Source: Haliotis cracherodii (taxonomy: Eukaryota). Taken from it: DNA of 64,000 nucleotides. Location of the stretch: positions 1,302,001 through 1,366,000 of the forward strand of contig NW_027266330.1 of NCBI RefSeq assembly GCF_022045235.1, in the 5' to 3' direction. Below are positions 1 to 21,400 of this stretch, in pieces (within the stretch, counting starts at the first letter, position 1; every line of letters begins with the position of its first letter). Below the pieces are notes generated by a model, which saw only the letters and a program-made list of their open reading frames with translations, had not been told where the DNA came from and ran no database searches. Made by a program: the position numbers and the translations under genes.

Positions 1-123
1 TAGCGGTCTATTGTTATTATTAACGGCATATTGTTATCATTAGCGATCTATTGTTATCATTGGCGGCCTTTTGTTATTATGAGCAGCATATTGTTATTAT
101 TAGCTGCATATTGTTATTGTTAG
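1..123. repeat. 20-bp minisatellite
   Basis: TAGCGGCATATTGTTATTAT-like units. Confidence 0.85.
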
Positions 124-363
124 CGAGACAAGAGTTTACCAGGCAAAGCGATTAAACGGCGAGATCCATCAGTGGTCATTTCGTCCGTATGCTGGACATG
201 GCCAGAGACAGTTCAACCAGTGGTCATCTATGTCCAGGTCTGGAGTGGACGTAATTGGGTCTGTTTAACAAGGCAGTGGTAACCGAATTCCGATAGTGTC
301 AACTTGCTGTCGTGTTAAAATAACTAGGTCACGATACAGTCAAGATATGCATTTAATTATCTA

Positions 364-537
364 CAGTAAACTACGTTTATAACGAACACGGTTACAACGA
401 ACTGACGGATATGACGAACTTTTTTGTGTGTCCCGGCCACTGCTCTATACATGCTATACATATGCTTATAACGAACTACGGTTATAACGAACTAAAATTA
501 GTGGTCACTTTGAGTTCATAATAGCCGCAGTTTACTG
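364..537. mobile_element. Tc1/mariner (pogo/Tigger-like) MITE
   Basis: ~24-bp imperfect TIRs starting CAGTAAACT, TA on both flanks, internal ATAACGAAC subrepeats. Confidence 0.8.
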
Positions 538-602
538 TAGAAGTGTGTTTTATCAATCTATTAAATATATATGGTCGCATTAAACTTTTATCCCTGTCGT
601 AC

Positions 603-955
603 ACATAACTGTGTGTGAGATGGTCAAACTGTAGTGATGCAAACATAACTGTGTGAGATGGTCAAACTGTAGTGATGCAAACATAACTGTGACAGATGGT
701 CAGACTGTAGTGATGCAAACATAACTGTGTGAGATGGTCAGACTGTAGTGATGCAAACATAACTGTGTGAGATGGTCAAACTGTAGTGATGCAAACATAA
801 CTGTGTGAGATGGTCAGACTGTAGTGATGCAAACATAACTGTGTGAGGTGGTCAGACTGTAGCGATGCAAACTCAACTGTGTGAGATGGTCAGACTGTAG
901 TGATGCAAACATAACTGTGTGAGATGGTCAGACTGTAGTGATGCAAACATAACTA
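603..955. repeat. 38-bp minisatellite, ~9 copies
   Basis: CATAACTGTGTGAGATGGTCAGACTGTAGTGATGCAAA. Confidence 0.95.
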
Positions 956-1062
956 TATGGTATGACAAATGAAGACGATATGCGAATGTAACAGAAACGA
1001 ATATTTCGACATTAAGTTGTGCAGACGCATGATATATATGTGACAAAGTAAAATAACAATCA

Positions 1063-1890
1063 GTCTTGTGATGTTTATAAACTGTCAGGCAATTAGTCGA
1101 CATGACCAAACAAGGATATCGTTCTTGTGATGTTCATGAACTATCAGGTGATTAGTCAACATGACCAAACAAGGATATCATTCTTGTGATGTCCATGAAC
1201 TGTCATGCGATTAGTCGACATGACCAAACAAGGATATCATTCTTGTGATGTCCATGAACTGTCAGGCGATTAGTCGACATGACCAAACAAGGATATCGTT
1301 CTTGTGATGTTCATGAACTATCAGGTGATTAGTCGACATGACCAAACAAGGATATCGTTCTTGTGATGTTCATGAACTGTCATGCGATTAGTCGACATGA
1401 CCAAACAAGGATATCATTCTTGTGATGTCCATGAACTGTCAGGTGATTAGTCGACATGACCAAACAAGGATATCGTTCTTGTGATGTTCATGAACTATCA
1501 GGTGATTAGTCGACATGACCAAACAAGGATATCATTCTTGTGATGTCCATGAACTGTCAGGTGATTAGTCGACATGACCAAACAAGGATATCATTCTTGT
1601 GATGTTCATGAACTATCAGGTGATTAGTCGACATGACCAAACAAGGATATCGTTCTTGTGATGTTCATGAACTGTCAGGTGATTAGTCGACATGACCAAA
1701 CAAGGATATCATTCTTGTGATGTTCATGAACTGTCAGGCGATTAGTCGACATGACCAAACAAGGATATCGTTCTTGTTATGTTCATGAACTGCCAGGTGA
1801 TTAGTCGACATGACCAAACAAGGATATCGTTCTTGTGATGTTTTATGAACTGTGTGTGTAGGTGATTAGTCGACATGACCAAACAACGAT
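1063..1890. repeat. 59-bp minisatellite, ~14 copies
   Basis: TCTTGTGATGTTCATGAACTGTCAGGTGATTAGTCGACATGACCAAACAAGGATATCGT. Confidence 0.95.
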
Positions 1891-2901
1891 ACATTCCACA
1901 AATTTGTGTTTTCTCATGCAAACCTTTAGCAAAAGCTTTTGACATTTCGCTTGTGTTTGGTTCGTAACCTGATTACATGAAAGACAAACGCCATGGCTGA
2001 CTTATAGTTTACCACGTTCTACTTTCAAATGCCATTTCTCCTTTCATGTAGGACGAACTTCCAAGGAACTGAGATATTATCGTATATACCTTCGCTGACA
2101 CAATGTATCCTCGGCTTAATGACTCAAAAACACAACCCACGGCTAGTTTACAAGTGCATGCCGTTCACACAATGTGAGTTTCAAATAGATCGAAGAATCT
2201 TGTTCTCTTTATTCAAAGGAAATACACTGAAGACATCAGAGACAGTTAGTGGGAATATTTATGCCAAAGTTTAATTTGTGAAGGCTTCAACAGGAAAGAA
2301 CGGTCAGTCCTGCCACCTCGTGACTGCAAGTCGTTGACTCTGTTGCAAAAAGGGTTTTGGTGTATTGTATTAAGTGATTTCTCGCAGTTAAGTTATAACG
2401 TAGCTGGGCAAGGAACATTCTGGTGAATGTCGTTAAGTGTATCAGAGGTAGTGCAGAGATCCTGGTGAATGTCGTTAAGTGTATCAGAGGTAGTGCATAG
2501 ATTCTAGTGAATAGAGTTAAGTGTATCAGAGGTAGTGCATAGATTCTAGTGAATAGAGTTAAGTATATCAGAGGTAGTGCAAAGATTCTGGTGAATAGAG
2601 TTAAGTGCATCAGAGGTAGTGCATAGATTCTGGTGAATGTCGTTAAGTGTATCAGAGGTAGTGCATAGATTCTGGTGAATGTCGTTAAGTGTATCAGAGG
2701 TAGTGCATAGATTCTGGTGAATGTCGTTAAGTGTATCAGAGGTAGTGCATAGATTCTGGTGAATAGAGTTAAGTGTATCAGAGGTAGTGCATAGATTCTG
2801 GTGAATAGAGTTAAGTGTATCAGAGGTAGTGCACAGCTTCTGGTGAATAGAGTTAAGTGAGGAAGAGAATATATGGATGTCAACTTCTTTATTTTGAGGA
2901 A

Positions 2902-2941
2902 CACAACGTTTCGGAGTATATGCTTACGCCTTCGTCAGGTG
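2902..2941 (-). ncRNA. Hammerhead motif on minus strand (one helix II mismatch)
   Basis: CAC-CTGACGA-A-GGCGTA-agcata-TACTCC-GAAACGTTGTG. Confidence 0.55.
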
Positions 2942-3157
2942 AATGAATGCCATGAGGCAGAGAACATATATATGTACATGTAAGGACAACAAAAATAAAA
3001 AGATAACAAAAGGTGGAAAATAACAAAGGGTACAAGCTGAAAAAGGAAGCTAACAGATGACTGGCGCTGATAGGTGATTTTACCACCTTTTGTTATCTTA
3101 TCAATTTTGTTGTCCTTACATGTACATATATATGTTCTCTGCCTCATGGCATTCATT

Positions 3158-3197
3158 CACCTGATGAAGGAGTAAGCAAATACTCCGAAACGTTGTG
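3158..3197 (+). ncRNA. Minimal type I hammerhead ribozyme motif (PLE type)
   Basis: CAC-CTGATGA-A-GGAGTA-agcaaa-TACTCC-GAAA-CG-TT-GTG: conserved core, perfect 6-bp helix II, palindromic helix III. Confidence 0.7.
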
Positions 3198-3746
3198 TTC
3201 CTCATAATAAAGAAGTTGACATCCATATATTCTCTTCATTATGTGTATCACTTCTAAATGCCTTTCAAAGACCAGAGCGAAGTGTATCAGAGGTAGTGCA
3301 AAGATTCTGGTGAATAGAGTTAAGTGTATCAGAGGTAGTGCAAAGATTCTGGTGAATAGAGTTAAGTGTATCAGAGATAGTGCAAAGATTCTGGTGAATA
3401 GAGTTAAGTGTATCAGAGGTAGTGCAAAGATTCTGGTGAATAGAGTTAAGTGTATCAGAGGTAGTGCAAAGATTCTGGTGAATATCGTTACGTGTATCAG
3501 AGGTAGTGCAAAGATTCTGGTGAATAGAGTTAAGTGTATCAGAGGTAGTGCAAAGATTCTGGTGAATAGAGTTAAGTGTATCAGAGGTAGTGCAAAGATT
3601 CTGGTGAATAGAGTTAAGTGTATCAGAGGTAGTGCATAGATTCTGGTGAATAGAGTTAAGTGTATCAGAGGTAGTGCATAGCTTCTGGTGAATAGAGTTA
3701 AGTGAGGAAGAGAATATATGGATGTCAACTTCTTTATTTTGAGGAA

Positions 3747-3786
3747 CACAACGTTTCGGAGTATATGCTTACGCCTTCGTCAGGTG
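3747..3786 (-). ncRNA. Hammerhead motif on minus strand, duplicate
   Basis: Same as 2902-2941 at +845. Confidence 0.55.
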
Positions 3787-4002
3787 AATGAATGCCATGA
3801 GGCAGAGAACATATATATGTACATGTAAGGAGAACAAAAATAAAAAGATAACAAAAGGTGGAAAATAACAAAGGGTACAAGCTGAAAAAGGAAGCTAACA
3901 GATGACTGGCGCTGATAGGTGTTTTTTCCACCTTTTGTTATCTTATCAATTTTGTTGTCCTTACATGTACATATATATGTTCTCTGCCTCATGGCATTCA
4001 TT

Positions 4003-4042
4003 CACCTGATGAAGGAGTAAGCAAATACTCCGAAACGTTGTG
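4003..4042 (+). ncRNA. Minimal type I hammerhead ribozyme motif (PLE type), duplicate
   Basis: Identical to 3158-3197. Confidence 0.7.
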
Positions 4043-5152
4043 TTCCTCATAATAAAGAAGTTGACATCCATATATTCTCTTCATTATGTGTATCACTTCT
4101 AAATGCCTTTCAAAGACCAGAGCGAAGTGTATCAGAGGTAGTGCAAAGATTCTAGTGAATGTCGTTAAGTGTATCAGAGGTAGTGCATAGATTCTGGTGA
4201 ATGTCGTTAAGTGTATCAGAGGTAGTGCATAGATTCTGGTGAATGTCGTTAAGTGTATCAGAGGTAGTGCATAGATTCTGGTGAATGTCGTTAAGTGTAT
4301 CAGAGGTAGTGCATAGATTCTGGTGAATAGAGTTAAGTGTATCAGAGGTAGTGCAAAGATTCTGGTGAATAGAGTTAAGTGTATCAGAGATAGTGCAAAG
4401 ATTCTGGTGAATAGAGTTAAGTGTATCAGAGGTAGTGCAAAGATTCTGGTGAATAGAGTTAAGTGTATCAGAGGTAGTGCAAAGATTCTGGTGAATATCG
4501 TTACGTGTATCAGAGGTAGTGCAAAGATTCTGGTGAATAGAGTTAAGTGTATCAGAGGTAGTGCAAAGATTCTGGTGAATAGAGTTAAGTGTATCAGAGG
4601 TAGTGCAAAGATTCTGGTGAATAGAGTTAAGTGTATCAGAGGTAGTGCAAAGATTCTGGTGAATAGAGTTAAGTGTATCAGAGGTAGTGCAAAGATTCTG
4701 GTGAATATCGTTACGTGTATCAGAGGTAGTGCAAAGATTCTGGTGAATAGAGTTAAGTGTATCAGAGGTAGTGCAAAGATTCTGGTGAATAGAGTTAAGT
4801 GTATCAGAGGTAGTGCAAAGATTCTGGTGAATAGAGTTAAGTGTATCAGAGGTAGTGCAGAGATTCTGGTGAATAGAGTTAAGTGTATCAGAGGTAGTGC
4901 AAAGATTCTGGTGAATATCGTTACGTGTATCAGAGGTAGTGCAAAGATTCTGGTGAATATCGTTAAGTGTATCAGAGGCAGTGCAAATATTCTGGTGAAC
5001 AGAGTTGAGTAGTTTAGCAGTATTGACGTGTCCCTGGCGAATACTTAGTATGATTCTCAATCTCAACTCGAGGTCCCACTTAAAGGGGCAGTTACAGCGT
5101 AAGTATATGTAAGTATTATGTCCATGGAGAATAGGGTATGAGTCAATGGGAA

Positions 5153-5675
5153 AGGCGGTATGTTCCTTGTGAATAGCGGTATGTTCCTTGTGAATAGCGG
5201 TATGTTCCTTATGAATAGCAGTGTGTTCCTTGTGAATAGCGGTATGTTCCTTGTGAACAGCGGTATGTTCCTTGTGAATAGCGGTATGTTCCTTGTGAAT
5301 AGTAGTGTGTTCCTTGTGAATAGCGGTATGTTCCTTGTGAACAGCGGTATGTTCCTTGTGAATAGCAGTGTGTTCCTTGTGAATAGCGGTATGTTCCTTG
5401 TGAACAGGGGTATTTTCCTTGTGAACAGCGGTATGTTCCTTGTGAATAGTGGTATGTTTCTTGTGGATAGCGGTATGTTCCTTGTGAAGAGCAGTATGTT
5501 CATTGTGAATAGCTGTATGTTCCTTATGAATAGCAATATGTTAATTGTGAATTGCGGTGTGTCCCTTGTGAATAGCGGTGTGTTCCTTGTGAATAGCGGT
5601 ATGCTAATTGGGAATAGTGGTATGTTATTTGGAAATAGCGGTATGTTCCTTGGGAATAGCGATATGTTCCTTGTG
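5153..5675. repeat. 21-bp minisatellite
   Basis: GCGGTATGTTCCTTGTGAATA. Confidence 0.95.
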
Positions 5676-6298
5676 GTATACAATGAGTGTTGGCGGCAAT
5701 GGAATGGTCGTACTAAAAGCTGCGAGTACAATGTATCGGTATTAGCGGCAATGAGACGTTTAGGTTAAAATGATACCAGAACATTTCAGGCGATGTGAAG
5801 GTCTTGGCATTAAGGAAGTACCTGATGCATAAGAGGGCCTACTAGTGAATACAGTATGTAGCTGAGGCGACTGGATGGTTCTGCTGAAGGTTGTGTAATT
5901 GTGGACTCGCATGACACACTATGGAAACTCTGTGGGCAGCTCCGCTGATGCCTCAGACAGGGCGCGTTTGTCTGCACAGTTCCAGATGAAAGCAACACTG
6001 AGAGGCATTTTCTTGTGGTCGGGTATCGGCGGCAACTAGAACAGCCCGGTGTAATGGCGGCCTACAATAGATGTGGAGGTGCACTGGCCTAATGCACAGT
6101 CTGCCCAGACTGCTACAATACACGGCTGATGTCACGGCAGTCCCACTGACAGAGCTCTGGCACACACACTGATGTGTTAACTTCAACGCTTGGGGGGCGG
6201 ACATGGATGTGGTCGTTGGTCATTACCAGATGGACGGTATTGTGATTAACGTAAAACCAAGGGACCTTCTGACAACAAGGACGATATATGTGATTAAA

Positions 6299-6450
6299 TG
6301 AGTGAGTATGATGTTACGCCGCTCTTAGCAATATTCCCGCAAAATCACGGCGGGGGACTACGGACATGGTTTACACATTGTACCAATTTTGGGAATCAAA
6401 CGTCGGCGTGACGAGCAAACGCTTTAACCACTAAGCTACCCAACCGCCCC
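6299..6450 (-). mobile_element. SINE family 1 copy
   Basis: Similarity to 41340-41509. Confidence 0.8.
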
Positions 6451-7310
6451 TGGACGGTCGTCGCACGTAACAGAACTGTAAATGATGACAACAGTGTAAA
6501 AAGAATAAATATAAATTATGCCGGAATTAATTTGGCAACACCTCCAAACAAGGGGCTAAATAACTGTCATTTTACTGACTACATCTTGCTGCCTAAATCT
6601 GACAGTCGCTCTGCATCCCTCTTGACATCCCCAGGTTTCTATTTTCTGTTTGGGTATATATTAACATGCAGGCGTTGAAACTCATCGTCGAATGATGCAG
6701 ATATGTATCCCTGTGTCAAAGTGACAGCTTTACAAGTATATGAACTCTGCAAACCCCGATTACCAGCTGGTTCCCGACAAGGGATGCGAGTGAAGCTGTC
6801 TGCTACAGAATGAAGGCATTTTACAAGGATTGCGTGTGCTTATCACGTGTGAAGCAACAGTTACAACCCCAGAAAATCTCCCCGACCGGAACATGGACTA
6901 TTACATTCAAGCCATTAGGTTAGGTCTGTGGAGGCAGCATTCGGTTATCATCTTTTTCACAGGGCAAGGAAGTAGGTCTTTATGTGCAGCTAGGCTAAAC
7001 ATCTATAACAGTAATCCCGACTCCATTAGGTCAGGCTACCACTGTGTGATGGTACTGAGTGGAGACATGGAACTGCATATAACTACTGATTTCTATATAT
7101 AAATATGATGGGCAGGGATTCAGGGGCGCTGGGTCATTAGAAACTAGTTATGAGAATACTTCGACAGTCCGCACTGATGCTGCGAACACCTGATGCCATC
7201 AATGAGTCTCAGTGATCCACTCATAACTGCCCCCACTATTTCGCCTGTTACACTCCATGGTTTCGGAAGATAATTGTGACTGATCATTCTCTGGCGTTGA
7301 TGCTTTTATT

Positions 7311-8064
7311 GTACACTATACTGGTACTCTAACTGTTACTTGTCGAGAGGCTGGAGTGTACACTATACTTGTACTCTAACTGTTACTTGTCGAGAGGCTG
7401 GAGTGTACACTATACTGATACTCTAACTGTCACTTGTCGAGAGGCTGGAGTGTACACTATACTGGTACTCTAACTGTTACTTGTCGAGAGGCTGGAGTGT
7501 ACACTATACTTGTACTCTAACTGTTACTTGTCGAGAGGCTGGAGTGTACACTATACTGATACTCTAACTGTCACTTGTCGAGAGGCTGGAGTGTACACTA
7601 TACTGATACTCTAACTGTTACTTGTCGAGAGGCTGGAGTGTACACTATACTTGTACTCTAACTGTTACTTGTCGAGAGGCTGGAGTGTACACTATACTGA
7701 TACTCTAACTGTCACTTGTCGAGAGGCTGGAGTGTACACTATACTGGTACTCTAACTGTTACTTGTCGAGAGGCTGGAGTGTACACTATACTGGTACTCT
7801 AACTGTTACTTGTCGAGAGGCTGGAGTGTACACAGTACTGGTACTCTAACTGTTACTTGTCGAGAGGCTGGAGTGTACACTATACTGATACTCTAACTGT
7901 TACTTGTCGAGAGGCTGGAGTGTACACTCTACTGGTACTCTAACTGTTACTTGTCGAGAGGCTGGAGTGTACACTATACTGGTACTCTAACTGTCACTTG
8001 TCGAGAGGCTGGAGTGTACACTATACTGGTACTCTAACTGTCACTTGTCGAGAGGCTGGAGTGT
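7311..8064. repeat. 47-bp minisatellite, 16 copies
   Basis: GTACACTATACTGGTACTCTAACTGTTACTTGTCGAGAGGCTGGAGT. Confidence 0.95.
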
Positions 8065-8637
8065 GTGAGCCCCAGTTTTGGGTTGCGGGCAGTCGCCCCA
8101 TTACGTTGTACGATCGTTAAACCAATAAAAAGGGGTAGCTGAACCTTCGCAGCGAAACCAATAATAAACCAGGATCACGGGTAATTGTTTTTTTTCTGTT
8201 TTGAATCTAAAGAAACCCCAAGGAAAATCATTAAATGGAGATTTTAACCTGGAGACAGATGCAAGTTCACACCATGATAGACTTTCGATTTTCTGGCTTC
8301 GTTTCTGGAGCACACAAGCGAAACAGTAGCGTTTAGAACTGTGATGCTTGCGTTACATCTTCCCACGTCCCGTGCACATGACGAGTCAGCATCAAGTGGC
8401 AGAAGAGCTTGCTCTCCAACCTCATCCTTGAGCAACGTGTACTATCGATCCAGTGAATCAAATCAACATCCGGTTTTTAAATTGCTGGTCAAAGATTAAT
8501 TTCGAACCTTTGTAAAACAGTTAATGGGATCGACTTACTTGCCGCTTCTTATTCAATTTTGATCTACTTCAGCACGGCTGGTTTCTTGTCTTGGAGTATG
8601 TGTTGAAAGGGTGTAAAATGAAGTTACTGTCATCGAC

Positions 8638-9087
8638 TGGGGGAGATACTCAGGTCGTCCTAGCTTCAGTTTATGTGGTTCTGTCAGTGACGGGGAAGAT
8701 ACTCAGTTCGTCCTAGCTTCAGTTTATGTGGTTCTGTCAGTGATGGGGGAGATACTCAGGTCGTCCTAGCTTCAGTTTATGTGGTTCTGTCAGTGATGGG
8801 GGAGATACTCAGGTCGTCCTAGCTTCAGTTTAGGTGGTTCTGTCAGTGATGGGGGAGATACTCAGGTCGTCCTAGCTTCAGTTTATGTGGTTCTGTCAGT
8901 GATGGGGGAGATACTCAGGTCGTCCTAGCTTCAGTTTAAGTGGTTCTGTCAGTGATGGGGGAGATACTCAGGTCGTCCTAGCTTCAGTTTATATGGTTCT
9001 GTCAGTGACGGGGGAGATACTCAGGTCGTCCTAGCTTCAGTTTAGGTGGTTCTGTCAGTGATGGGGGAGATACTCAGGTCGTCCTAG
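8638..9087. repeat. 53-bp minisatellite, ~8.5 copies
   Basis: GGGGAGATACTCAGGTCGTCCTAGCTTCAGTTTATGTGGTTCTGTCAGTGATG. Confidence 0.95.
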
Positions 9088-10447
9088 CACACAGCCACAG
9101 TTAATGTGGTTAACACAATATGCACATTCTGTATCTTCAAGTTCTGTTTACGCTCTGCCCTAAATTACCAACCATATCGTAGTGCAGGTCTACTGCTGCT
9201 GGTTAAATGTAATACATATTGATCAGTTTGGGAACGGTCTCTGCGCTCACATTAACTTCAGGAATTATAGTTTGGTGGTGGTCATAAAAAAATTAAACAA
9301 ACAAAGCCCTCCTTAGCACACCGAAGCTGGATAGCTCAATTTTTTTATTCAGTTTGAGAAAACTAAAATGCTTACCTCCCAAGACGTCTTACAATGGCAA
9401 CTTCAAAAGTTTAGACATAAGATGTATGTCTGTACGTTAACGTTGTTCTATATTTAGTGGATGCGGGTCAGAAGAATACCCGGTAATCCATATATCTGCA
9501 GAATGCTAACAACGGGCAAATTTTTAGAGAAAAATATAAATGATAATTCGCGCTTGTATGAATGTGAATTTGACTGTTTCTTTAAGTAATTACATCTATT
9601 GTCCTCGACCGAATGTATAAAACACCTAAACATGTCAATAATGAGAGACGTGGATCCTTTCTGGAAGACATTTTAAAAAAATAAACAAGTTCAACTGAAT
9701 TTCAAGGAACACGGAGATAAAAACAGCCGAGCCTATGGTTCAAGACTTATGAAGTCACACACACATCTTTGTGTTTCGGTTTTCTCTTAAAGTTCGAAAA
9801 ATCGTCCTTCCACTCTTTTTAGACATACTTCATCGTGACACACAACGTCTGATATTTTCATAAACAACTCATGACTTAAAACATCGTTATCGTACCTTGT
9901 CCTTAGTCTACGAGAGCATATATAGTGTCACAAATACGGTTTCTATGATGCCATTATTCAAATGGCACAATACGTTGCTCGTTGAGCAAATACGGAATAC
10001 ATAAAATGTCATTTTCAGTCATTTGGGAAATGTTTACAAAATAAAGATTATTATTTTCGACAGAACTATGTGCATGACAATAGCTGATTGGTACAAATAT
10101 ATCTATCTCAGGAAGACAGACGGGATGAATTGGAATATAACACCGGATAAGGTCGCGGTGGGATTTAGAAAATGTGTGCAGTGAAGTGCTTGACTTCTCA
10201 TTCTTTCTCCCCTTTTTTCTCATCCTCCCATCCCAAGCACGTCCCCTCCCCTCCCTGTCCCCCTCCCCTCCCCATTCCGACCCCTCCAATCCTTGACCAC
10301 CGGAAAATACAATAATGGACATTGTCAGCACCATCCTAACAGCTTACGACTACTTTATAAATTGACCAATCTCATGTGCCCTATATAACGTCTGGATGTG
10401 ATTACCAGGTAAGTAGAAGCTAGTGTTCCACTCAAGGGATAAATGAC

Positions 10448-10672
10448 TACTGGAGCGCTTCCTTCCCCTCTCCGTGCCCCGCCTTCGTCCACCCTGCGGC
10501 CTCCCAGGATGTGGCCAGTGATGAGCGGCCAGACACACTCAGTGGTGTGGTGCTGTACTGGAGCGCTTCCTTCCCCTCTCCGTGCCCCGCCCTCGTCCAC
10601 CCTGCGGCCTCCCAGGACGTGGCCAGTGATGAGCGGCCAGACACACTCAGTGGTGTGGTGCTGTACTGGAGC
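10448..10672. repeat. 108-bp tandem duplication
   Basis: Two copies bounded by TACTGGAGC at 10448, 10556 and 10664. Confidence 0.9.
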
Positions 10673-11819
10673 ACGGACTCCAATCAGAGACGAGCGAGGG
10701 GAGATGAACTGTGTCGCTTCGGGACCGAGCTGTCGTTACGTAAACCAAATCTCCTCGTTGTTTGTCCAAATCTGTAGGTTCATGCTGAGATGAACAGGTA
10801 GAATGACAAAGCGTTTGTGCAGTCAGCATCAACATCAGTAACATTAACAACACCGTCAGTGATCAACGTCAATATTAACACTAACAGTAGCATCACCGCC
10901 AGCATCACGATCAGTAAAAACGCTGACATTAACATCACCGTCAGTGATCAACATCACTATCAAAACTGACAGAAACATCTCTGGCAGTGATCAACATCAG
11001 TAACAACATCATCATGACCATCGAAATCAGCACCAACATTATCGCTGTAGTCATCACTATCAACATCAACATTATCGCTGTAGTCATCACTATCAACATC
11101 AACATTATCTCCGAGAAACCATGGGTACAGGCTACAATACGTTTGTGTCTGTAGTTGTACATCTGTCGTCTAATCCTGGGGAGATGATCTATGCTCTAAC
11201 ATATCATCCCAGCGTTACATCTACATAGAATCCCAGATCAAACATTTAATTAACACGTAAGTAATCTCTCGTCACTGTGTGTTCTCGGGTGTCAAATCAA
11301 ATCGAATTGTGTTTCATGTTATTCAGAACGCACACAAGCCTGTGAACATCGCCATCTTCTTCCCGAGTCGAACTATTGGCATTCAACATATTGGTCTCGT
11401 CGTGTCTTGGCATTGTGTGAGATTTTCATACCGCGTTATATATGTCAGCAGCAGAGTCACCGCACGTCGTATTTAGATATACGTTCTCAGAATGCTACAG
11501 ATTATAATTTGTCTGATGAGTTCTCCACATGTCTGATATGAGTCTTTAATTACACAGGTGCAAATAACGCGACGTCTTTGGGTGGAATGACAGCTTCTGT
11601 CTATGTGGACAGTGACATCAGTACAAGACTGCGTGGGTTTGTACGGGAGAAGAAACATCCCAGTCCTGCTGGGTTCCTTTGCAGTGGTTGATCTTCCCGT
11701 CCATGGGACAGTTACTACACACGAGCTTACTCTGTGTCAACGATGGACGTGGCGACGTACTTCCTGCTTTGCCTGAGATGACCAACGTTAGCTTCTCCCG
11801 CAGCTTGGTCAGATATATA

Positions 11820-12177
11820 CTCACCACCAAAAGAAACCAAAACCATAGAAACATAGAAAAGTATGGACGTTAAGAAGAAATGTTTCCAATGTGTATCAAT
11901 TAATGTCAAAACTTACAAGCAGTCGTGTGTTACCACAGTGTCTTTATTCCTATCACAATATGCTGCACGTGACTGCCAAACTTTTAAATCTAATCCTGCA
12001 CGAGACGAATTTCGAGTCATGGATCTATGACGTCACTTGTGATTCGTTCGTGAGCTTCGGTTCAAGCAACATAACAGTATGTTCGTTTGTGCGGTGAACC
12101 AATCTAATATCTCTGAAGTATGAGTAATGCTTAATATATTAACGTAACATAGTATTCTCGTTTCTTTTGGCGGTGAG
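11820..12177. mobile_element. Tc1-like MITE
   Basis: TIR CTCACCRCCAAAAGAAAC, TA flanks; second copy at 55184-55545. Confidence 0.85.
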
Positions 12178-12248
12178 TATACAAGAATGGGACATATTAT
12201 TCTTGCCCCCTGCTGTGCGTGGGCTTGTGTCTTCAACCTCGTCAGCCT

Positions 12249-13215
12249 CTGTTGTGTGACCCTGCAGTGATCTGTTGTGTGACCCTGCAGTTGTCTATTG
12301 TGTGACCCTGTAGTGATCTGTTGTGTGATCCTGCAGTGATCTGTTGTGTGACCCTGCAGTGATCTGTTGTGTGATCCTGCAGTGATCAGTTGTGTGGCCC
12401 TGCAGTGGTCAGTTGTGTGATCCTGCAGTGATCTGTTGTGTGACCCTGCAGTTGTCTATTGTGTGACCCTGCAGTGGTCTGTTGTGTGACCCTGCAGTGA
12501 TCTGTTGTGTGACCCTGCAGTTGTCTATTGTGTGGCCCTGCAGTGGTCTGTTGTGTGACCCTGCAGTGATCTGTTGTGTGACCCTGCAGTTGTCTATTGT
12601 GTGACCCTGCAGTGGTCTGTTGTGTGACCCTGCAGTGATCTGTTGTGTGACCCTGCAGTGGTCTGTTGTGTGATCCTGCAGTGATCAGTTGTGTGACCCT
12701 GCAGTGGCCTGTTGTGTGGCCCTGCAGTAGTCTGTTGTGTGACCCTGCAGTGGTCTGTTGTGTGGCCCTGCAGTAGTCTGTTGTGTGACCCTGTAGTGAT
12801 CTGTTGTGTGACCCTGCTGTGGTCTGTTGTGTGGCCCTGCAGTAGTCTGTTGTGTGACCCTGCAGTGGTCTGTTGTGTGGCCCTGCAGTAGTCTGTTGTG
12901 TGACCCTGTAGTGATCTGTTGTGTGACCCTGCTGTAGTCTGTTGTGTGGCCCTGCAGTAGTCTGTTGTGTGACCCTGCTGTGGTCCTTTGTGTGACCCTG
13001 CAGTGGTCTGTTGTGTGACCCTGTAGTGATCTGTTGTGTGACCCTGCAATGGTTTGTTGTGTGACCCTGCAGTAGTCTGTTGTGTGACCCTGTTGTGGTC
13101 CTTTGTGTGACCCTGCAGTGGTCTGTTGTGTGACCCTGCAGTGGTCTGTTGTGTGACCCTGCAATGGTTTGTTGTGTGACCCTGCAGTAGTCTATTGTGT
13201 GACCCTGTTGTGGTC
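12249..13215. repeat. 23-bp minisatellite, ~42 copies
   Basis: TGTTGTGTGACCCTGCAGTGRTC. Confidence 0.95.
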
Positions 13216-13389
13216 CGTTCTGTTAGAAGTAAACTTTTGAATGTGACCCGTTACTGAGTTTAGAACGGTTTCCCCAGACTACATGGAATTAATGAAATTA
13301 GTCTTAAGACGTAAACTGGTGGATAAAGAGTCAGGTAAACACGCGGGCGTCACATGATCAGTACACATGTTCTCCTGCTGAATGCTGTA

Positions 13390-13995
13390 GTCACAAAACC
13401 AAAACATTCCTCGTTACAACAGCAGAACTTTCCCGTCACAACACCATAACATTCCTCGTCATAACAGCAGAACTTTCCCGTCACAACACCATAACATTCC
13501 TCGTTACAACAGCAGAGATTTCCCGTCACAACAGCAGAGCTTTCCCGTCACAACAGCAGAGCGTTCCCGTCACAACAACAGAGCGTTCCCGTCACAACAA
13601 CAAAACATTCCTCGTCACAACAGCAAAGCTTTCCAGTCACAACAGCAGAGGTTTCCCATCAATACAGCAGAGCGTTCCCATCACAATAGCAGAACTTTCC
13701 CTCACTACGGCAAGCTTTCCCGTCACTACGGCAGAGCTTTCCCACCACCACAGCAGATTTCTCCCGTCATAACAGCAGAGGTTTCCCGTCACAACTGCAG
13801 AGCTTACCCGTCCAAGCAGCAGAGCTTTCCCACCACAACAGCAGAGCTATGCCGTCACAACAACAGAGCTTTTCCGGCACTACAACAGAGCTTTCCCGTC
13901 ACAACAACAAAAAATTCCCCGTCACAACAGCAGAGCTTACCCGTCCAAACAGCAGAGCTTTCCCGTCACAAGACCAAGGTATTTCTCGTGTCACA
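13390..13995. repeat. Diverged ~22-bp minisatellite
   Basis: CACAACAGCAGAGCTTTCCCGT. Confidence 0.9.
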
Positions 13996-15960
13996 TGTGT
14001 GACAGTGTGTATGCCAATATGTAAGACAGCCACTCGATAAATTGCAAAGAACAATAGAGAACGAAGCGGTGGTTTATTTCACGATACAATCATTGTTCTA
14101 TCATGACGTTACGTCTGGGGACTCGAACATGCGCTCATAACTTGATGACATCGTAAATCGGACGGCGTTTTTTCTGAGAGGGAAGTGTCTTGAGAGTTGT
14201 TCGCCATAGATGTAGCTGGCGACGCAGATAAACGCAATGGCCGAACGATCACATCCAATAGTGGCAGAGATGTGACAATCAGTATAGGGAGAAACGGAAC
14301 AAATGATCTACAAGTAAATTGTGAGAATGTCTGGGAAATAAAATACAACCCCGTTCATAAAATGGACTTATCCGACATTGCCAAAGTCGGATTGTATTCA
14401 GGGAGTCATCATTATTTAAATACGACTCTTGAACGTTGTTTATCGACAACAAAACACTGCAGCGAGAATAAACCACACGAAGCTGCGTCCATAATGCTGT
14501 AGCCTCTCAGCAGTGTTATTGTGTGCGATGAAATGTGTTGTTCACTACCTGTAATTTATTTTTTATTATATCAATCATAAAACCTTGAAGCCGTAATTCC
14601 CCCTACCTAACACACAGGAACGTTTTACAGTTATAGGAGAAATTTACAGTTTATAACCAATCATTTTCAAGAGAATAACCAACGGCAAGAAGCGACATTA
14701 ACTACTTCAATGACCATCTTTCATTATCTTGCCTTGTCCGGATGGAACTAACACGGAATGTAAAAAGGAAGGAAGTCAACAGCTTGTGTACGAGCCAGAC
14801 AGTTACAATTAAGGGAGACAATTTGCGGGGAGGTAACTCTTGTATGACTATAGTTCCGTCAAAGTGTTATGTTACCTGTAGTGAAATGTCAAGCGCTATT
14901 GTCACTGCAACGAAAATATCACTTTTCTCAACTTCAGAAAACTGTCATACCGAAGTAAATAATATAGTGTGTGACTGTTACATCGTATATGTCTGTGTGT
15001 CCATGACGTATATTGTTTGTGACTGTCACGTCGTATATTTCTGTGTTTCCATGACGAATATAGGAACCTATAAATTGTATACAGTTTAGTGTTTCGGTGA
15101 CAAAAATAGCGTGCAACTGTCACAACGTGTCATCTGCTGCACGATCAGATACCAACGTCATGTAATTGCCCTTTGTGATGTAAGGGCAAGTCTTGTGACC
15201 TACATTCCCATCAGAATAGACTTGACTTGTTGGGGAGGTAGACTGACGCTTGCTTCTGATTCCAGGGCGTTCCCTGTGGCGCCGTTTCCCCGCGACCCCA
15301 CCGTCAGCAGTGGAGGCAGCTTCGGCCAATAACGTCTGCCATCAATATTACGAGGAAAACATGTCCAAGTCATTTCTCACACTCGCCAAAAATACGTTTA
15401 GTCTATATTTAGTTAGGAAAAAGACACACTTTTTTTCATAACCATTTAATTTCCTGTAAAATGGTAGCAACAGCATCTCTGATACTCTAGGCCGGTGGGC
15501 GGGGCGAGGTGACCCTTTATCCCGTGGGGTGGGGAGGCGGGGTGGTGGCGTTGTGATGTGCACAGACAACCAGTGGCTGGCGACGGAACAGGATATGACT
15601 TACACAAGGATAGTTAATACTGCACGCGCGACACGGCAGGGGTGTAATAACGGGGTCCACGAGGAAACTTACAATCCAATATACCGTCTACAGACGTAAT
15701 GACCCATTTTAGCCCCCTGATGAGCGGCGAGATAAATGATTTGTGGAAAGAAATAACAAACTGGTTGAAAAGAGACGATTTCGTATAACCTTACATATTA
15801 AACAACAGAGACAAGCACGCTTCTCATTTCAGCAAATTTAAGAGCAGACTTGTAATACCGGTTAATAAAAAGAACAGTTATTTTCTGTGTGATTAAAGTG
15901 CACGCGTGTGTGACAGTAAAGATGCAAGCAGTATCACAAACACTGTCACCTCAGTTGACC

Positions 15961-18703
15961 TCTCCCGTGTGATGGACATGCATGCTGGTGTAAGTCGCTC
16001 TCCCGTGTGATGAACATGCATGCTGGTGTAAGTCGCTCTCCCGTGTGATGGACATGCATGCTGGTGTAAGTCGCTCTCCAGTGTGATGGACATGCATGCT
16101 GGTGTAAGTCGCTCTCCCGTGTGGTGGACATGCATGCTGGTGTAAGTCGCTCTCCCGTGTGATGGACATGCATGCTGGTGTAAGTCGCTCTCCCGTGTGA
16201 GGGACATGCATGCTGGTGTAAGTTGCTCTCCCGTGTGAGGGACATGCATGCTGGTGTAAGTCGCTCTCCCGTGTGATGGACATGCATGCTGGTGTAAGTC
16301 GCTCTCCCGTGTGATGGACATGCATGCTGGTGTAAGTCGCTCTCCCGTGTGAGGGACATGCATGCTGGTGTAAGTCGCTCTCCCGTGTGATGGACATGCA
16401 TGCTGGTGTAAGTCGCTCTCCAGTGTGATGGACATGCATGCTGGTGTAAGTCGCTCTCCCGTGTGGTGGACATGCATGCTGGTGTAAGTCGCTCTCCCGT
16501 GTGATGGACATGCATGCTGGTGTAAGTCGCTCTCCCGTGTGAGGGACATGCATGCTGGTGTAAGTCGCTCTCCCGTGTGATGGACATGCATGCTGGTGTA
16601 AGTCGCTCTCCCGTGTGGTGGACATGCATGCTGGTGTAAGTCGCTCTCCCGTGTGATGGACATGCATGCTGGTGTAAGTCGCTCTCCCGTGTGATGGACA
16701 TGCATGCTGGTGTAAGTCGCTCTCCCGTGTGGTGGACATGCATGCTGGTGAAAGTCGCTCTCCCGTGTGATGGACATGCATGCTGGTGTAAGTCGCTCTC
16801 CCGTGTGATGGACATGCATGCTGGTGTAAGTCGCTCTCCAGTGTGATGGACATGCATGCTGGTGTAAGCCGCTCTCCAGTGTGATGGACATGCATGCTGG
16901 TGTAAGTCGCTCTCCCGTGTGATGGACATGCATGCTGGTGTAAGTCGCTCTCCCGTGTGATGGACATGCATGCTGGTGTAAGTCGCTCTCCCGTGTGATG
17001 GACATGCATGCTGGTGTAAGTCGCTCTCCCGTGTGAGGGACATGCATGCTGGTGTAAGTTGCTCTCCCGTGTGAGGGACATGCATGCTGGTGAAAGTCGC
17101 TCTCCCTTGTGATGGACATGCATGCTGGTGTAAGTCGCTCTCCAGTGTGATGGACATGCATGCTGGTGTAAGTCGCTCTCCCGTGTGATGGACATGCATG
17201 CTGGTGTAAGTCGCTCTCCAGTGTGATGGGCATGCATGCTGGTGTAAGTCGCTCTCCCGTGTGATGGACATGCATGCTGGTGTAAGTCGCTCTCCCGTGT
17301 GATGGACATGCATGCTGGTGTAAGTCGCTCTCCCGTGTGATGGACATGCATGCTGGTGTAAGTCGCTCTCCCGTGTGATGGACATGCATGCTGGTGTAAG
17401 TCGCTCTCCCGTGTGATGGACATGCATGCTGGTGAAAGTCGCTCTCCAGTGTGATGGACATGCATGCTGGTGTAAGCCGCTCTCCCGTGTGATGGACATG
17501 CATGCTGGTGTAAGTCGCTCTCCCGTGTGATGGACATGCATGCTGGTGTATGTCGCTCTCCCGTGTGATGGACATGCATGCTGGTGAAAGTCGCTCTCCC
17601 GTGTGATGGACATGCATGCTGGTGTAAGCCGCTCTCCCGTGTGATGGACATGCATGCTGGTGTAAGTTGCTCTCCAGTGTGATGGACATGCATGCTGGTG
17701 TAAGCCGCTCTCCCGTGTGATGGACATGCATGCTGGTGAAAGTCGCTCTCCCGTGTGATGGACATGCATGCTTGTGTAAGTCGCTCTCCCGTGTGATGGA
17801 CATGCATGCTGGTGTAAGTCGCTCTCCAGTGTGATGGACATGCATGCTGGTGTAAGCCGCTCTCCCGTGTGATGGACATGCATGCTGGTGTAAGCCGCTC
17901 TCCCGTGTGATGGACATGCATGCTGGTGTAAGCCGCTCTCCCGTGTGGTGGACATGCATGCTGGTGTAAGTCGCTCTCCAGTGTGGTGGACATGCATGCT
18001 GCTGTAAGTCGCTCTCCCGTGTGGTGGACATGCATGCTGGTGTAAGCCGCTCTCCCGTGTGATGGACATGCATGCTGGTGTAAGCCGCTCTCCCCGTGTG
18101 ATGGACATGCATGCTGGTGTAAGTCGCTCTCCAGTGTGATGGACATGCATGCTGGTGTAAGTCGCTCTCCCGTGTGATGGACATGCATGCTGGTGTAAGC
18201 CGCTCTCCCGTGTGATGGACATGCATGCTGGTGTAAGTCGCTCTCCAGTGTGGTGGACATGCATGCTGGTGTAAGCCGCTCTCCCGTGTGGTGGACATGC
18301 ATGCTGGTGTAAGTCGCTCTCCAGTGTGATGGACATGCATGCTGGTGTAAGTCGCTCTCCAGTGTGATGGACATGCATGCTGGTGTAAGTCGCTCTCCCG
18401 TGTGGTGGACATGCATGCTGGTGTAAGCCGCTCTCCCGTGTGATGGACATGCATGCTGGTGTAAGTCGCTCTCCCTTGTGATGGACATGCATGCTGGTGT
18501 AAGTCGCTCTCCAGTGTGATGGACATGCATGCTGGTGTAAGCCGCTCTCCAGTGTGATGGACATGCATGCTGGTGTAAGTCGCTCTCCCGTGTGGTGGAC
18601 ATGCATGCTGGTGTAAGCCGCTCTCCCGTGTGATGGACATGCATGCTGGTGTAAGCTGCTCTCCCGTGTGATGGACATGCATGCTGGTGTAAGTCGCTCT
18701 CCC
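15961..18703. repeat. 38-bp minisatellite, ~72 copies
   Basis: TCTCCCGTGTGATGGACATGCATGCTGGTGTAAGTCGC. Confidence 0.97.
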
Positions 18704-19589
18704 GAGGTTCTGGAACACGTGCTGCCTCACTGATAGTATGCACGTGTTTCTACGTTGAGTGGAGGATGCACGGATGGCCATGACGTCCAAGTCGCCAGTC
18801 GCCAGAGAATAATGATCGTAGGTTTGAATCCTGGTTATGTTTCGAGATTTGTCAGCACCGTGCTCGTTGGTTTCACACATCCATCTGACCCACGCGATTA
18901 AACCCGACTAACTCACTCACTCACTCACTCACCCACTCACCCACTCACCCACTCACTCACGCCATCCCTTGTTTGTTGCATGTACGTCGCAAGGCTGCTT
19001 CTTGTGACAACGTTTATCTTCTCAGAGTCTCTATCCAAAGTTCTCACAACCTTAAAATGCATTACAGCTTTCATCACGTTACAAAATACGTAACTTTTAT
19101 CTGATGGCTTTCGTACTCCCATAAAAAAGACCAAGTTAATTATACGTGGAGCAAACCTCCCGAGCTGTACACGAGAAAGGCGCGTGAGTCCAGATACTCC
19201 CAGACGAGCAGTGGTCGTGGTTTTGCTGTGTTTGGCATGTTTGGCTGTCTCCACAGAGAAGCACTCACGCTGATGAGAGTGAGAGCCAGATCGTGCATCC
19301 TGGTGGTGCAGAGTCGCGTACGTAGCCTGTAGCTGCAGGGAGCCCCGTGTGTGCCTCCCCAACGCCATCCCCGACTGCAGCACTTGTCATAATGATGCTC
19401 ACGGAATCATTACATTATCGTCATCAATATTAGATCCGTACATCTGCATCAAAGGATGGATAGCGCAGGGCACTAATCACCACCAGGAGTTGTATCTCCA
19501 CTGGGACTACTCTGTGATTCCCCTTCCCTAACTACTGCCTGTACCTTCCCGCGCGGCTACTCGTCTCCACCTACAGATACTGGCCCCCT

Positions 19590-21400
19590 AGCCCTACCCA
19601 TTCCCTACTCCTCACACACCACACCCTACTACTCACCCACCCACAGACTACTGCTCACCCACCCACAGACTACTGCTCACCCCACCCCACCCTACTCCTC
19701 CCAGACCACACCCTACTACTCACCCACCCACAGACTACTGCTCACCCAACCCCACCCTACTCCTCCCAAACCACTCCCTACTCCTCTCCACCCACTCCTC
19801 ACCCATCCACGCCCTGCTCCTCCCCCACACGCCCTTCCTCCTCACACACCCACATTCTACTCCTCACACACCCACAGACTACTGCTCACCCAACCCCACC
19901 CTACTTCTCCCAAACCACACCCTACTCCTCCCCACCCACTCCTCACACACCACACCCTAATCCTCACCCACCCACATCCTACTCCTCACACCCCCACCCT
20001 ACTCCTTACCAGCCCCTACCCTACTCCTCACACACCCCCACCCTACTCCTTACCCACACACATTCTACTCCTTACCCACCTCTACCCTACTCCTCACCAA
20101 CCAACATCCTAATCCTCCCCAACCAACATCCTACTCCTCACCAACCAACATCCCACTCCTCACCCACCCGCACCCTACTCCTTACCCACACACATCCTAC
20201 TCCTTACCCACCCCTACCCTACTCCTCACCAACCAACATCCTACTCCCCCAACCCCCACCCTACTCCTCACCCACCCACACCCTACTCCTCACACACACT
20301 CCTCACACACACACACACACACCCTACTCCTCACACACACACACCCTACTCCTCACCCACCCACACCCTACTCCTCACCCACCCACACCCTACTCCTCAC
20401 CCACACAGACCCTACTCCTCACACACACAGACCCTACTCCTCACCCACCCACACCCTACTCCTCACACACACACACCCTACTCCTCACACACACAGACCC
20501 TACTCCTCACCCACCCACATACTACTCCTCACACACACAGACCCTACTCCTCACACACACACTCCTCACACACACACTCCTCACACACACACAAACACCC
20601 TACTCCTCACACACCCACACCCTACTCCTCACCCACCAACACCCTACTCCTCACCCACCAACACCCTACTCACCTACCCACACACACCCTACTCCTCACC
20701 CACCAACACCCTACTCCTCACCCAAACACACCCTACTCCTCACACACACACACTACTCCTTACACACACACACCCTACTCCTCACCCACCCACTCCCTAC
20801 TCCTCACACACACTCCTCACACACACACACACCCTACTCCTCACACACACACTACTCCTTACACACACACACCCTACTCCTCACCCACCCACTCCCTACT
20901 CCTCACACACACTCCTCACACACACACCTTACTCCTCACACACACACCTTACTCCTCACACACACACCCTACTCCTCACACACACACACCCTACTCCTCA
21001 CACACACACACACACTCCTCACACACACACACACCCTACTCCTCACCCCATCCTACTCCTTCCCACCCACTCCCCAGTCCATCCCCACCCACACTCTACT
21101 TCTCCACCATCCACACCCTACTCACCCCCACCCACTCCCTGCTCCTCCCACACCCACACCCTACTCCTCATCCACCCACAACCTACTCCTCCCCTATCCA
21201 CAACCTACTCCTCCCCACCCACTCCCTGCTTCTCCCCCACCCACACCCTACTCCTTATCCACCCACACCCTACTCCTCATCCACATACACCCTACTCCTC
21301 ACACACCCACACCCTACTCCTCTACCCACAACGTTCCCCTCACCGACCTACTCCCAACCCAGTTTACCCCCCCCCCCCCCCCCCCATCCTACTCATCCCG
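19590..21400. repeat. C/A-rich degenerate repeat (CACCCTACTCCT core)
   Basis: Almost no G on the + strand for 1.8 kb. Confidence 0.9.

Follow-up and report, generated by a model that had tools for sequence, protein, structure and literature searches.

Background

In the insertions described for Penelope-like elements (PLEs), an inverted, 5'-truncated copy lies directly at the 5' end of the element, and a tail of 30-40 bp is found on one end (PMC8557442). A comparable layout, with head-to-head as the common form and target duplications of 8-10 bp, is described in PMC3846280, and the tail has been tied to two RT start sites (PMC11167929). PLEs also carry minimal hammerhead ribozymes (min-HHRs), which in the account of PMC4209133 have a CUGANGA core, a single base left unpaired between 9 and 10.1, a G10.1-C11.1 pair, a palindromic ACGU replacing helix III and a short helix I; opposite-strand pairs 100-700 bp apart have already been reported there. 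Metazoan non-LTR retrozymes are described as non-coding, PLE-derived elements in which two direct repeats follow each other and contain a type I hammerhead (PMC7229834; bioRxiv 10.64898/2026.07.22.740005).

The window analyzed here, 64,000 nucleotides from Haliotis cracherodii, contains two copies of a 420-bp insert (2860-3279 and 3705-4124) in a minisatellite of 42-bp units. Taken as a whole, the locus is very probably a PLE insertion in a single-locus minisatellite that was likely duplicated later by unequal exchange, with its ribozymes predicted to be buried in a hairpin. It resembles the insertions of endonuclease-bearing (EN+) PLEs as described (PMC8557442, PMC3846280, PMC11167929) in the C-terminal GIY-YIG after the RT, seen in sister copies, in strong 5' truncation, a head-to-head inverted pLTR, a tail of ~35 bp on one arm, a short target duplication and TATA/initiator-like motifs. 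Unlike them it retains no ORF, sits in a minisatellite and was duplicated along with it. The features of min-HHRs listed above, the opposite-strand pairing included, recur here, as does the U3-A8 variant of PMC4209133 in sister families. Helices II and I measure 6 and 3 bp, compared with 7-8 and 4-5 bp in Schistosoma and 6 and 2 bp in Drosophila virilis, while the cleavage triplet GUU and the broken helix II of the minus-strand copies set this locus apart from the min-HHRs described there.

Structure of the insertion

The two insert copies differ at 3 of 420 positions (2987, 3077 and 3082; 0.7%), and exact AAGTG stands on either side of the insert. Its arms are inverted and match over 159 nt at 95% in an ungapped comparison; a gapped alignment of 2860-3024 with 3074-3237 gives 94.5% over 164 columns, an arm divergence of 5.5%. 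The preliminary description, which reported a 420-bp insert with inverted arms of about 160 bp, AAGTG flanks, a 42-bp array and copies differing at a few bases, agrees with the sequence in all these points. The "loop" between the arms continues the left arm collinearly in sister copies, so that the insert is made up of a 220-nt minus-strand piece (2860-3079) and a 200-nt plus-strand piece (3074-3273), placed head-to-head. The former is an inverted, 5'-truncated pLTR/3'UTR piece without tail that takes in the loop; it is collinear with sister copies over ~220 nt, at about 89-93% to those that align along its full length. The latter is a direct, 5'-truncated pLTR piece that ends at the usual family end ...TTTCAAAGACC and carries a tail of 36 bp (3238-3273) missing from the inverted arm. 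In the second copy, the inverted piece occupies 3705-3924 (minus strand) and the direct piece with tail 3919-4118 (plus strand). This is the layout of an EN+ PLE fragment: an inverted, 5'-truncated pLTR head-to-head with a direct pLTR, and a tail on one end.

The left target-site duplication, of ~11 bp, was placed at 2849-2859, with the exact core AAGTG at 2855-2859, and the right one at 3274-3284 in copy 1 and 4119-4129 in copy 2 (all plus strand). The sequences at 2849-2859 and 3274-3284, AGAGTTAAGTG and AGAGCGAAGTG, are identical at 9 of 11 positions, 5 bp being exact. Most sister copies stop at or near GACC at the tail end, as here, and it is more likely, judging by the bases at the junction, that the target duplication has 11 bp, starts directly after this family end and leaves 2860-3273 as the element proper. 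At 56 surveyed sister loci, the duplications measured 7-12 bp in 20 and 5-6 bp in 11, and none was found in 25. The period of 845 bp can accordingly be written as 420+5+10x42 or as 414+11+10x42.

A TATATA box and an initiator-like TCATTC, 20 nt apart, are present at 3127-3158 (plus strand) and mirrored on the other arm; this pair may be the pLTR promoter, and its spacing is identical to that described for a rotifer Penelope pLTR (PMC3846280). Copies start at most 13 nt upstream of the hammerhead core in 24 of 29 sampled cases. In positions 1-20000 of the window we saw no convincing host coding frame, the long frames tracking tandem repeats (judged by eye).

Family membership and copy number

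The right arm and tail, used as a query against the 1.18-Gb genome, returned 2,708 first-look candidates, and 38 of the 40 that were scored are other loci, 87-95% identical. The preliminary description had called for a genome-wide copy search of the 420-bp unit: its arm and tail are high-copy, and the 42-bp repeat around it occurs nowhere else. Three sister copies (L027, L034 and L049) run upstream into a GIY-YIG-type frame. The best Atlas matches of these frames (0.95, 200-202 shared features) belong to clusters with PF01541 on 19-29% of members. A fourth copy (L035) runs on into RT and thumb sequence, with 47% identity over 229 aa to a 611-aa frame in which Pfam places RVT_1 above the cut-off. 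Pfam gave no match for five decayed ORF fragments of sister copies, and for four longer frames of related families it gave RVT_1 only, with no GIY-YIG; a PDB search with one longer related-family frame yielded weak RT matches only (AbiK, E 0.004; telomerase RT, E 0.07). A zinc-finger linker between RT and endonuclease was not seen in the translations of L035, L049 and L050, in agreement with Penelope/Poseidon, which has none in the description of PMC8557442, the clade being judged from that absence alone.

These matches identify the insert as a 5'-truncated, non-coding 3' end (pLTR) from a high-copy, endonuclease-bearing PLE. The earlier reading of a Penelope-like end with minimal type I hammerheads and an inverted 5' piece was borne out by the sister copies that continue into RT and GIY-YIG and by covariation in helices I and II. 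Of 150 matches scored, the listed ones with at least 65% identity contain no open frame longer than 319 aa, and the family therefore looks decayed. A search for copies running past the tail into the start of an ORF returned 8 matches, of which 2 are this locus and the other 6 diverge from each other directly after the tail, and it found no full-length copy of this family in the genome. One locus considered as a full-length PLE (L189) was rejected as a local 3.36-kb duplication. A MITE or fold-back DNA transposon was also rejected: a tail on one side keeps the arms from being terminal, the "loop" belongs to the collinear sequence of the family, and longer family members connect to RT/GIY-YIG.

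Inverted upstream pieces are common in the family. The first 30 loci with an exact core match, 29 of them distinct, served as a sample; such a piece was present at 16 and a near-complete opposed hammerhead core at 6. A wider pattern that covers sister families has 4,836 matches in the genome, and the first 100 of these listed include 8 head-to-head pairs less than 250 bp apart (counted by eye). Opposed hammerhead pairs likely number in the hundreds in this genome.

Hammerhead motifs

Four hammerhead motifs are present in the window: CTGATGA at 3161 and 4006 on the plus strand, and CTGACGA at 2938 and 3783 on the minus strand. One CTGAYGA motif per arm, one per strand, and two same-strand motifs on each strand had been described, and this arrangement was confirmed. 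The arm motif reads CAC-CTGAYGA-A-GGMGTA-loop-TACTCC-GAAACGTT-GTG. On the plus strand, the minimal type I hammerhead of copy 1 (3158-3197) is CAC / CUGAUGA / A / GGAGUA-loop-UACUCC / GAAACGUU / GUG, with a predicted cut after 3194, and that of copy 2 (4003-4042) would be cut after 4039; the cut sites after GUU proposed earlier are correctly positioned by the motif. Both plus-strand motifs have all core bases and an intact helix II. On the minus strand, the minimal hammerhead of copy 1 (2902-2941, predicted cut after 2905) has its helix II broken by a C-U mismatch at 2928, and copy 2 (3747-3786) has the same mismatch. A fifth CTGANGA...GAAA match, at 15717, is without the helix II and the palindrome of the four.

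The conserved core, the extra base at 9/10.1, the G10.1-C11.1 pair and the palindromic 15.2-16.2 are all present. A core pattern of 32 nt, allowing one mismatch, has 1,444 matches in the genome vs 0 for a reversed control, so the motif is not due to chance. The check by Rfam hammerhead models suggested in the preliminary description was negative: in 2000-5500 Rfam returned 17 matches at E<=10, none of them to a hammerhead family. MIR5048, at 91.7 bits (gathering 160), was rejected, as it reflects only the long hairpin. By its covariation across sister families the motif is a genuine minimal hammerhead, with self-cleavage as a prediction.

Two sister families of the same genome keep the fold, with the U3-A8 core variant present. 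Across five sequences of three families, a small and related sample, both-side (compensatory) changes occur at 4 of 9 helix I/II pairs. The covariation score is 0.378, a value reached in 1 of 500 shuffles; controls with slid positions score lower, with the -2 slide close at 0.333. Such changes on both sides of pairs across sister families argue that the hammerhead fold has been selected for in the active lineage, with the modest power of five sequences. In the inserted copies, the motif decays no slower than its flanks, as in neutral decay: departures from the majority were counted in 72 of 1,600 cells in the ribozyme and in 234 of 5,169 in the flanks, 4.5% in both (44 copies from 46 loci, 40 of them spanning the motif).

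Probable duplication within the minisatellite

The 42-bp array extends from 2417 to 5010 (~2.6 kb, plus strand) and consists of a left part of 10.5 units (2417-2859), ten middle units between the insert copies (3280-3699) and a right part of about 21 units (4125-5010). All 25 genome matches of a 32-nt unit pattern lie inside this array, and the 42-bp repeat is a single-locus repeat. The preliminary description took the insert plus about 10 units as repeated with a period of 845 bp. The period holds, but the repeat is not a clean one, since the middle 420 nt show 28 mismatches to the first ten units on the right, and 25 to the last ten on the left. The best single crossover still leaves 23 mismatches and calls for a second event; with the crossover placed behind the eighth unit and a jump of four units, located within the first of the middle ten units, 1 mismatch remains. 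The middle units are a mosaic, the first eight of right-flank type and the last two of left-flank type. Minisatellites that undergo unequal exchange in register with the repeat are expected to show such a mosaic of units. The combination of right- and left-flank variants points to unequal exchange of DNA, by which the insert was likely duplicated at a later time.

The arms are 5.5% apart vs 0.7% for the two copies, which suggests that the insertion is much older than the duplication. The RNA monomer cut at 3194 and 4039 exists only after the duplication and therefore cannot have caused it. Three other same-strand pairs with kilobase spacing (L189-L191, 1.4-3.4 kb apart) were fetched, and all three are local DNA duplications. 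The history would then begin with a head-to-head insertion made by the RT/GIY-YIG protein of the element, with a target duplication of ~11 bp, after which the two arms would have drifted apart to 5.5%. Much later, a misaligned exchange of a right-flank unit with one lying two units to the left of the insert would have duplicated the insert, with a gain or loss of four units in addition.

The second copy might instead be an assembly artefact, in which two alleles with one insert each were written in tandem. A difference of 0.7% fits allelic variation, a haplotype switch inside the minisatellite would look like a crossover mosaic, and no read or contig spans both copies. Against this, the assembly has 80 contigs for its 1.18 Gb and the array measures no more than ~2.6 kb, a length that long reads would likely span. 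The four-unit jump, moreover, requires a further event. We consider an artefact very unlikely. From one DNA run (X1), which may not be independent of the assembly, one contig equals 3248-3308 without differences and another equals 3025-3076 with one; both end one base short of a site that distinguishes the copies. The former contig crosses the joint with fewer than 31 letters to one side and was not counted as bridging. In four contig sets no sequence covered the left junction, a result without weight for or against the second copy. Two raw-read runs (X21 and X22), sampled at about 1 in 100, contained only other copies of the family.

RNA folding and alternative explanations

One insert is predicted to fold at about -265 kcal/mol on either strand. 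A read-through RNA of either strand has an antisense arm ahead of each ribozyme, and in full read-through folds the rounded probability of helix II is 0.000 in each of the four motifs. With the arm folded alone, the plus-strand helix II forms with P>0.9, while that of the minus strand, with its C-U mismatch, is lost in this case too. By prediction, a transcript begun between the arms, or at the TATA/initiator-like site, can leave the first plus-strand ribozyme free, with the second buried, because one antisense arm always lies between two same-strand ribozymes and at most one of them can be free. Forcing the dimer fold would cost 137.8 kcal/mol for 2860-4124 and 76.2 kcal/mol for 3151-4124. 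These folds are equilibrium predictions, with proteins and kinetics outside the model. Of the two outcomes offered in the preliminary description, a long hairpin that masks the ribozymes is what folding predicts. The other, release of an 845-nt retrozyme-like monomer, is disfavored by the antisense arm between the ribozymes, the cost of the dimer fold (76-138 kcal/mol) and the broken minus-strand helix II. The read-through RNA would pair each ribozyme with an antisense arm, which would make the locus a passenger and at most a minor source of dsRNA.

The locus could also be a nascent retrozyme, in which a transcript from the pLTR promoter or a read-through transcript is cut as a dimer into an 845-nt, satellite-containing RNA able to circularize. 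Two intact plus-strand motifs stand 845 nt apart with a promoter-like TATA/initiator just upstream of the first; metazoan min-HHRs are described as made for dimers (PMC4209133), and an origin of retrozymes from PLE ends via local tandem amplification has been proposed (bioRxiv 10.64898/2026.07.22.740005). The locus even fits formally the idea in this preprint of "two consecutive units with a motif". The antisense arm and the dimer penalties of 137.8 and 76.2 kcal/mol argue against this explanation, as does a helix I of only 3 bp, and min-HHR dimers cleave weakly in vitro even when unobstructed (PMC4209133), while 8 of 9 tested Xenopus dimers showed no cleavage (bioRxiv 10.64898/2026.07.22.740005). 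Two copies of 845 bp also contrast with the arrays of 150-450 bp described in PMC7229834. The motif is no better conserved than its flanks in copies. Moreover, the 42-bp unit has not spread, so the suggestion of a ribozyme-satellite unit at an early stage is not supported at a locus that is the only one with this repeat. Unlike the metazoan non-LTR retrozymes described, the 845-bp unit is half host minisatellite, is present in two copies at one locus, contains a minimal and not a canonical ribozyme together with an antisense arm, and is known here from DNA alone. Tandem units of 150-450 bp and dispersal of the unit in the genome were not found for this locus, and its ribozymes are not predicted to be free in the folded multimer. 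We therefore regard a nascent retrozyme as extremely unlikely. In its fullest form, a dead PLE end in a host minisatellite, made tandem by unequal exchange, would be transcribed from its own pLTR promoter, and a PLE protein would open the hairpin for dimer cleavage into an 845-nt circle, half of it host satellite; the hammerhead of an anole PLE cleaves only with its protein (PMC11167929). The birth of a retrozyme by this route seems exceedingly improbable here. A release of circular RNA from the locus, should it occur, would show the proposed transition from PLE to retrozyme in progress.

The hairpin itself could matter as a source of small RNAs, its duplexes of ~165-190 bp being diced into RNAs against this PLE family and the duplication having raised the dose. 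The fold of one insert at about -265 kcal/mol on either strand is in line with this, and Penelope copies yield small RNAs in rotifer and Drosophila (PMC3846280). However, the locus is not singled out, inverted pieces being present at 16 of 30 sampled loci. The arms differ by 5.5%, and no family copy whose long frame could serve as the target was seen (the listed matches with at least 65% identity, of 150 scored, reach 319 aa at most). Small-RNA production from the modeled hairpin is possible, but as the explanation of the locus we consider it very unlikely.

The preferred reading, an old PLE insertion duplicated with its minisatellite, combines the outcomes of two known processes. The locus is an ordinary stub of an abundant PLE family caught in an ordinary minisatellite rearrangement, and as it stands it is of small importance. 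A PLE stub duplicated within a minisatellite was not found in the literature searched, in which subscription papers were covered to a limited extent. The locus also indicates that a pipeline rule which equates two hammerheads in tandem with an active retrozyme can mislead, because folding predicts that the antisense arm inside each unit cancels the dimer.

A 46-bp hammerhead array elsewhere in the genome

At another locus of the same genome (L193:4840-6249; G000:C1:67136339-67137748), the hammerhead itself is repeated in tandem as a 46-bp unit, in 31 copies. The array terminates in a normal pLTR 3' end and is without an antisense arm, and all 28 genome matches of its unit-junction pattern lie at this locus. 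Core, helix II and cut site are kept in 15 of the 31 units. Where units meet head to tail, helix I is closed as a hairpin and adjacent ACGU palindromes can pair. In the first 3 of the 15 junctions of this type, this fold is predicted at 1.1-2.6 kcal/mol above the minimum. The 46-bp array is a better ribozyme-satellite candidate than the insert locus, and the route of retrozyme birth looks far more plausible there. This array offers a cleaner test of the PLE-to-retrozyme idea.

Tandem hammerheads elsewhere in the genome

The Penelope-like element (PLE) family whose two stub inserts lie in the window has also given rise to a minisatellite built of hammerhead motifs. At a single locus, L193, the entire minimal hammerhead of this family forms the 46-bp repeat unit of an array of 31 units arranged head-to-tail (L193:4840-6249, corresponding to G000:C1:67136339-67137748, plus strand; also in L089). 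The core, helix II and cut site are all intact in 15 of these units, and the array lacks the antisense arm, the inverted pLTR piece that opposes each plus-strand ribozyme in the window. According to modelling, pairs of adjoining units can adopt a type III-like hammerhead, predicted to lie 1.1-2.6 kcal/mol above the minimum-energy fold at the first three of the 15 intact junctions. Slippage, acting on a short stretch of TTC microhomology, is the likely origin of the array. In contrast to published retrozymes, whose units are far longer, the repeat is only 46 bp.

Same-strand hammerhead pairs were found at other loci. At L192 (L192:431-635, G000:C3:16.53 Mb) a 102-bp direct repeat places two hammerheads on one strand, and a short inverted piece stands ahead of each. 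L189 (3.36 kb), L190 (2.11 kb) and L191 (1.38 kb) are tandem duplications of local sequence, each containing two same-strand hammerheads in a row. That of L191 also includes an inverted arm, and that of L189 takes in an exon identified by eye as EGF-like, with a Tc1-like transposase frame, also recognized by eye, between the duplicated exons.

Sister PLE families in the same genome have hammerheads with a U3-A8 core variant (TTGAYAA) and a GUC cut site (L124, L126, L130 and L159-L187). These make up the majority of the first 100 listed among 4,836 matches to a wider motif pattern, and some of the families have open frames of 500-611 aa.

Copy starts and pLTR signals

In 24 of 29 copies sampled from G000:C1 (L061-L089), which were picked by presence of the core so that the start is bounded on one side, no more than 13 nt of the copy precede the CUGA core. 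The start falls at an initiator-like TCATTCAC located 20 nt downstream of a TATATA box. This clustering suggests that a short RNA initiated in the pLTR was copied, instead of truncation having struck at random.

Introns are present in the pLTRs of other Penelope elements. A genome search for a window-family copy running on into an ORF, as a test for an intron, found none. Judging from sequence signals, window 3163-3270 (plus strand) could hold a pLTR intron of about 98 nt: the ribozyme core contains an ATG, GTAAGC follows downstream within helix II, and a pyrimidine-rich stretch ends in TTTCAAAG close to the family 3' end.

Unrelated minisatellites crowd the whole window (1-64000), for which TRF lists 108 rows with periods reaching 178 bp; the window lies 1.3 Mb from a contig start, a setting like that of subtelomeric regions.
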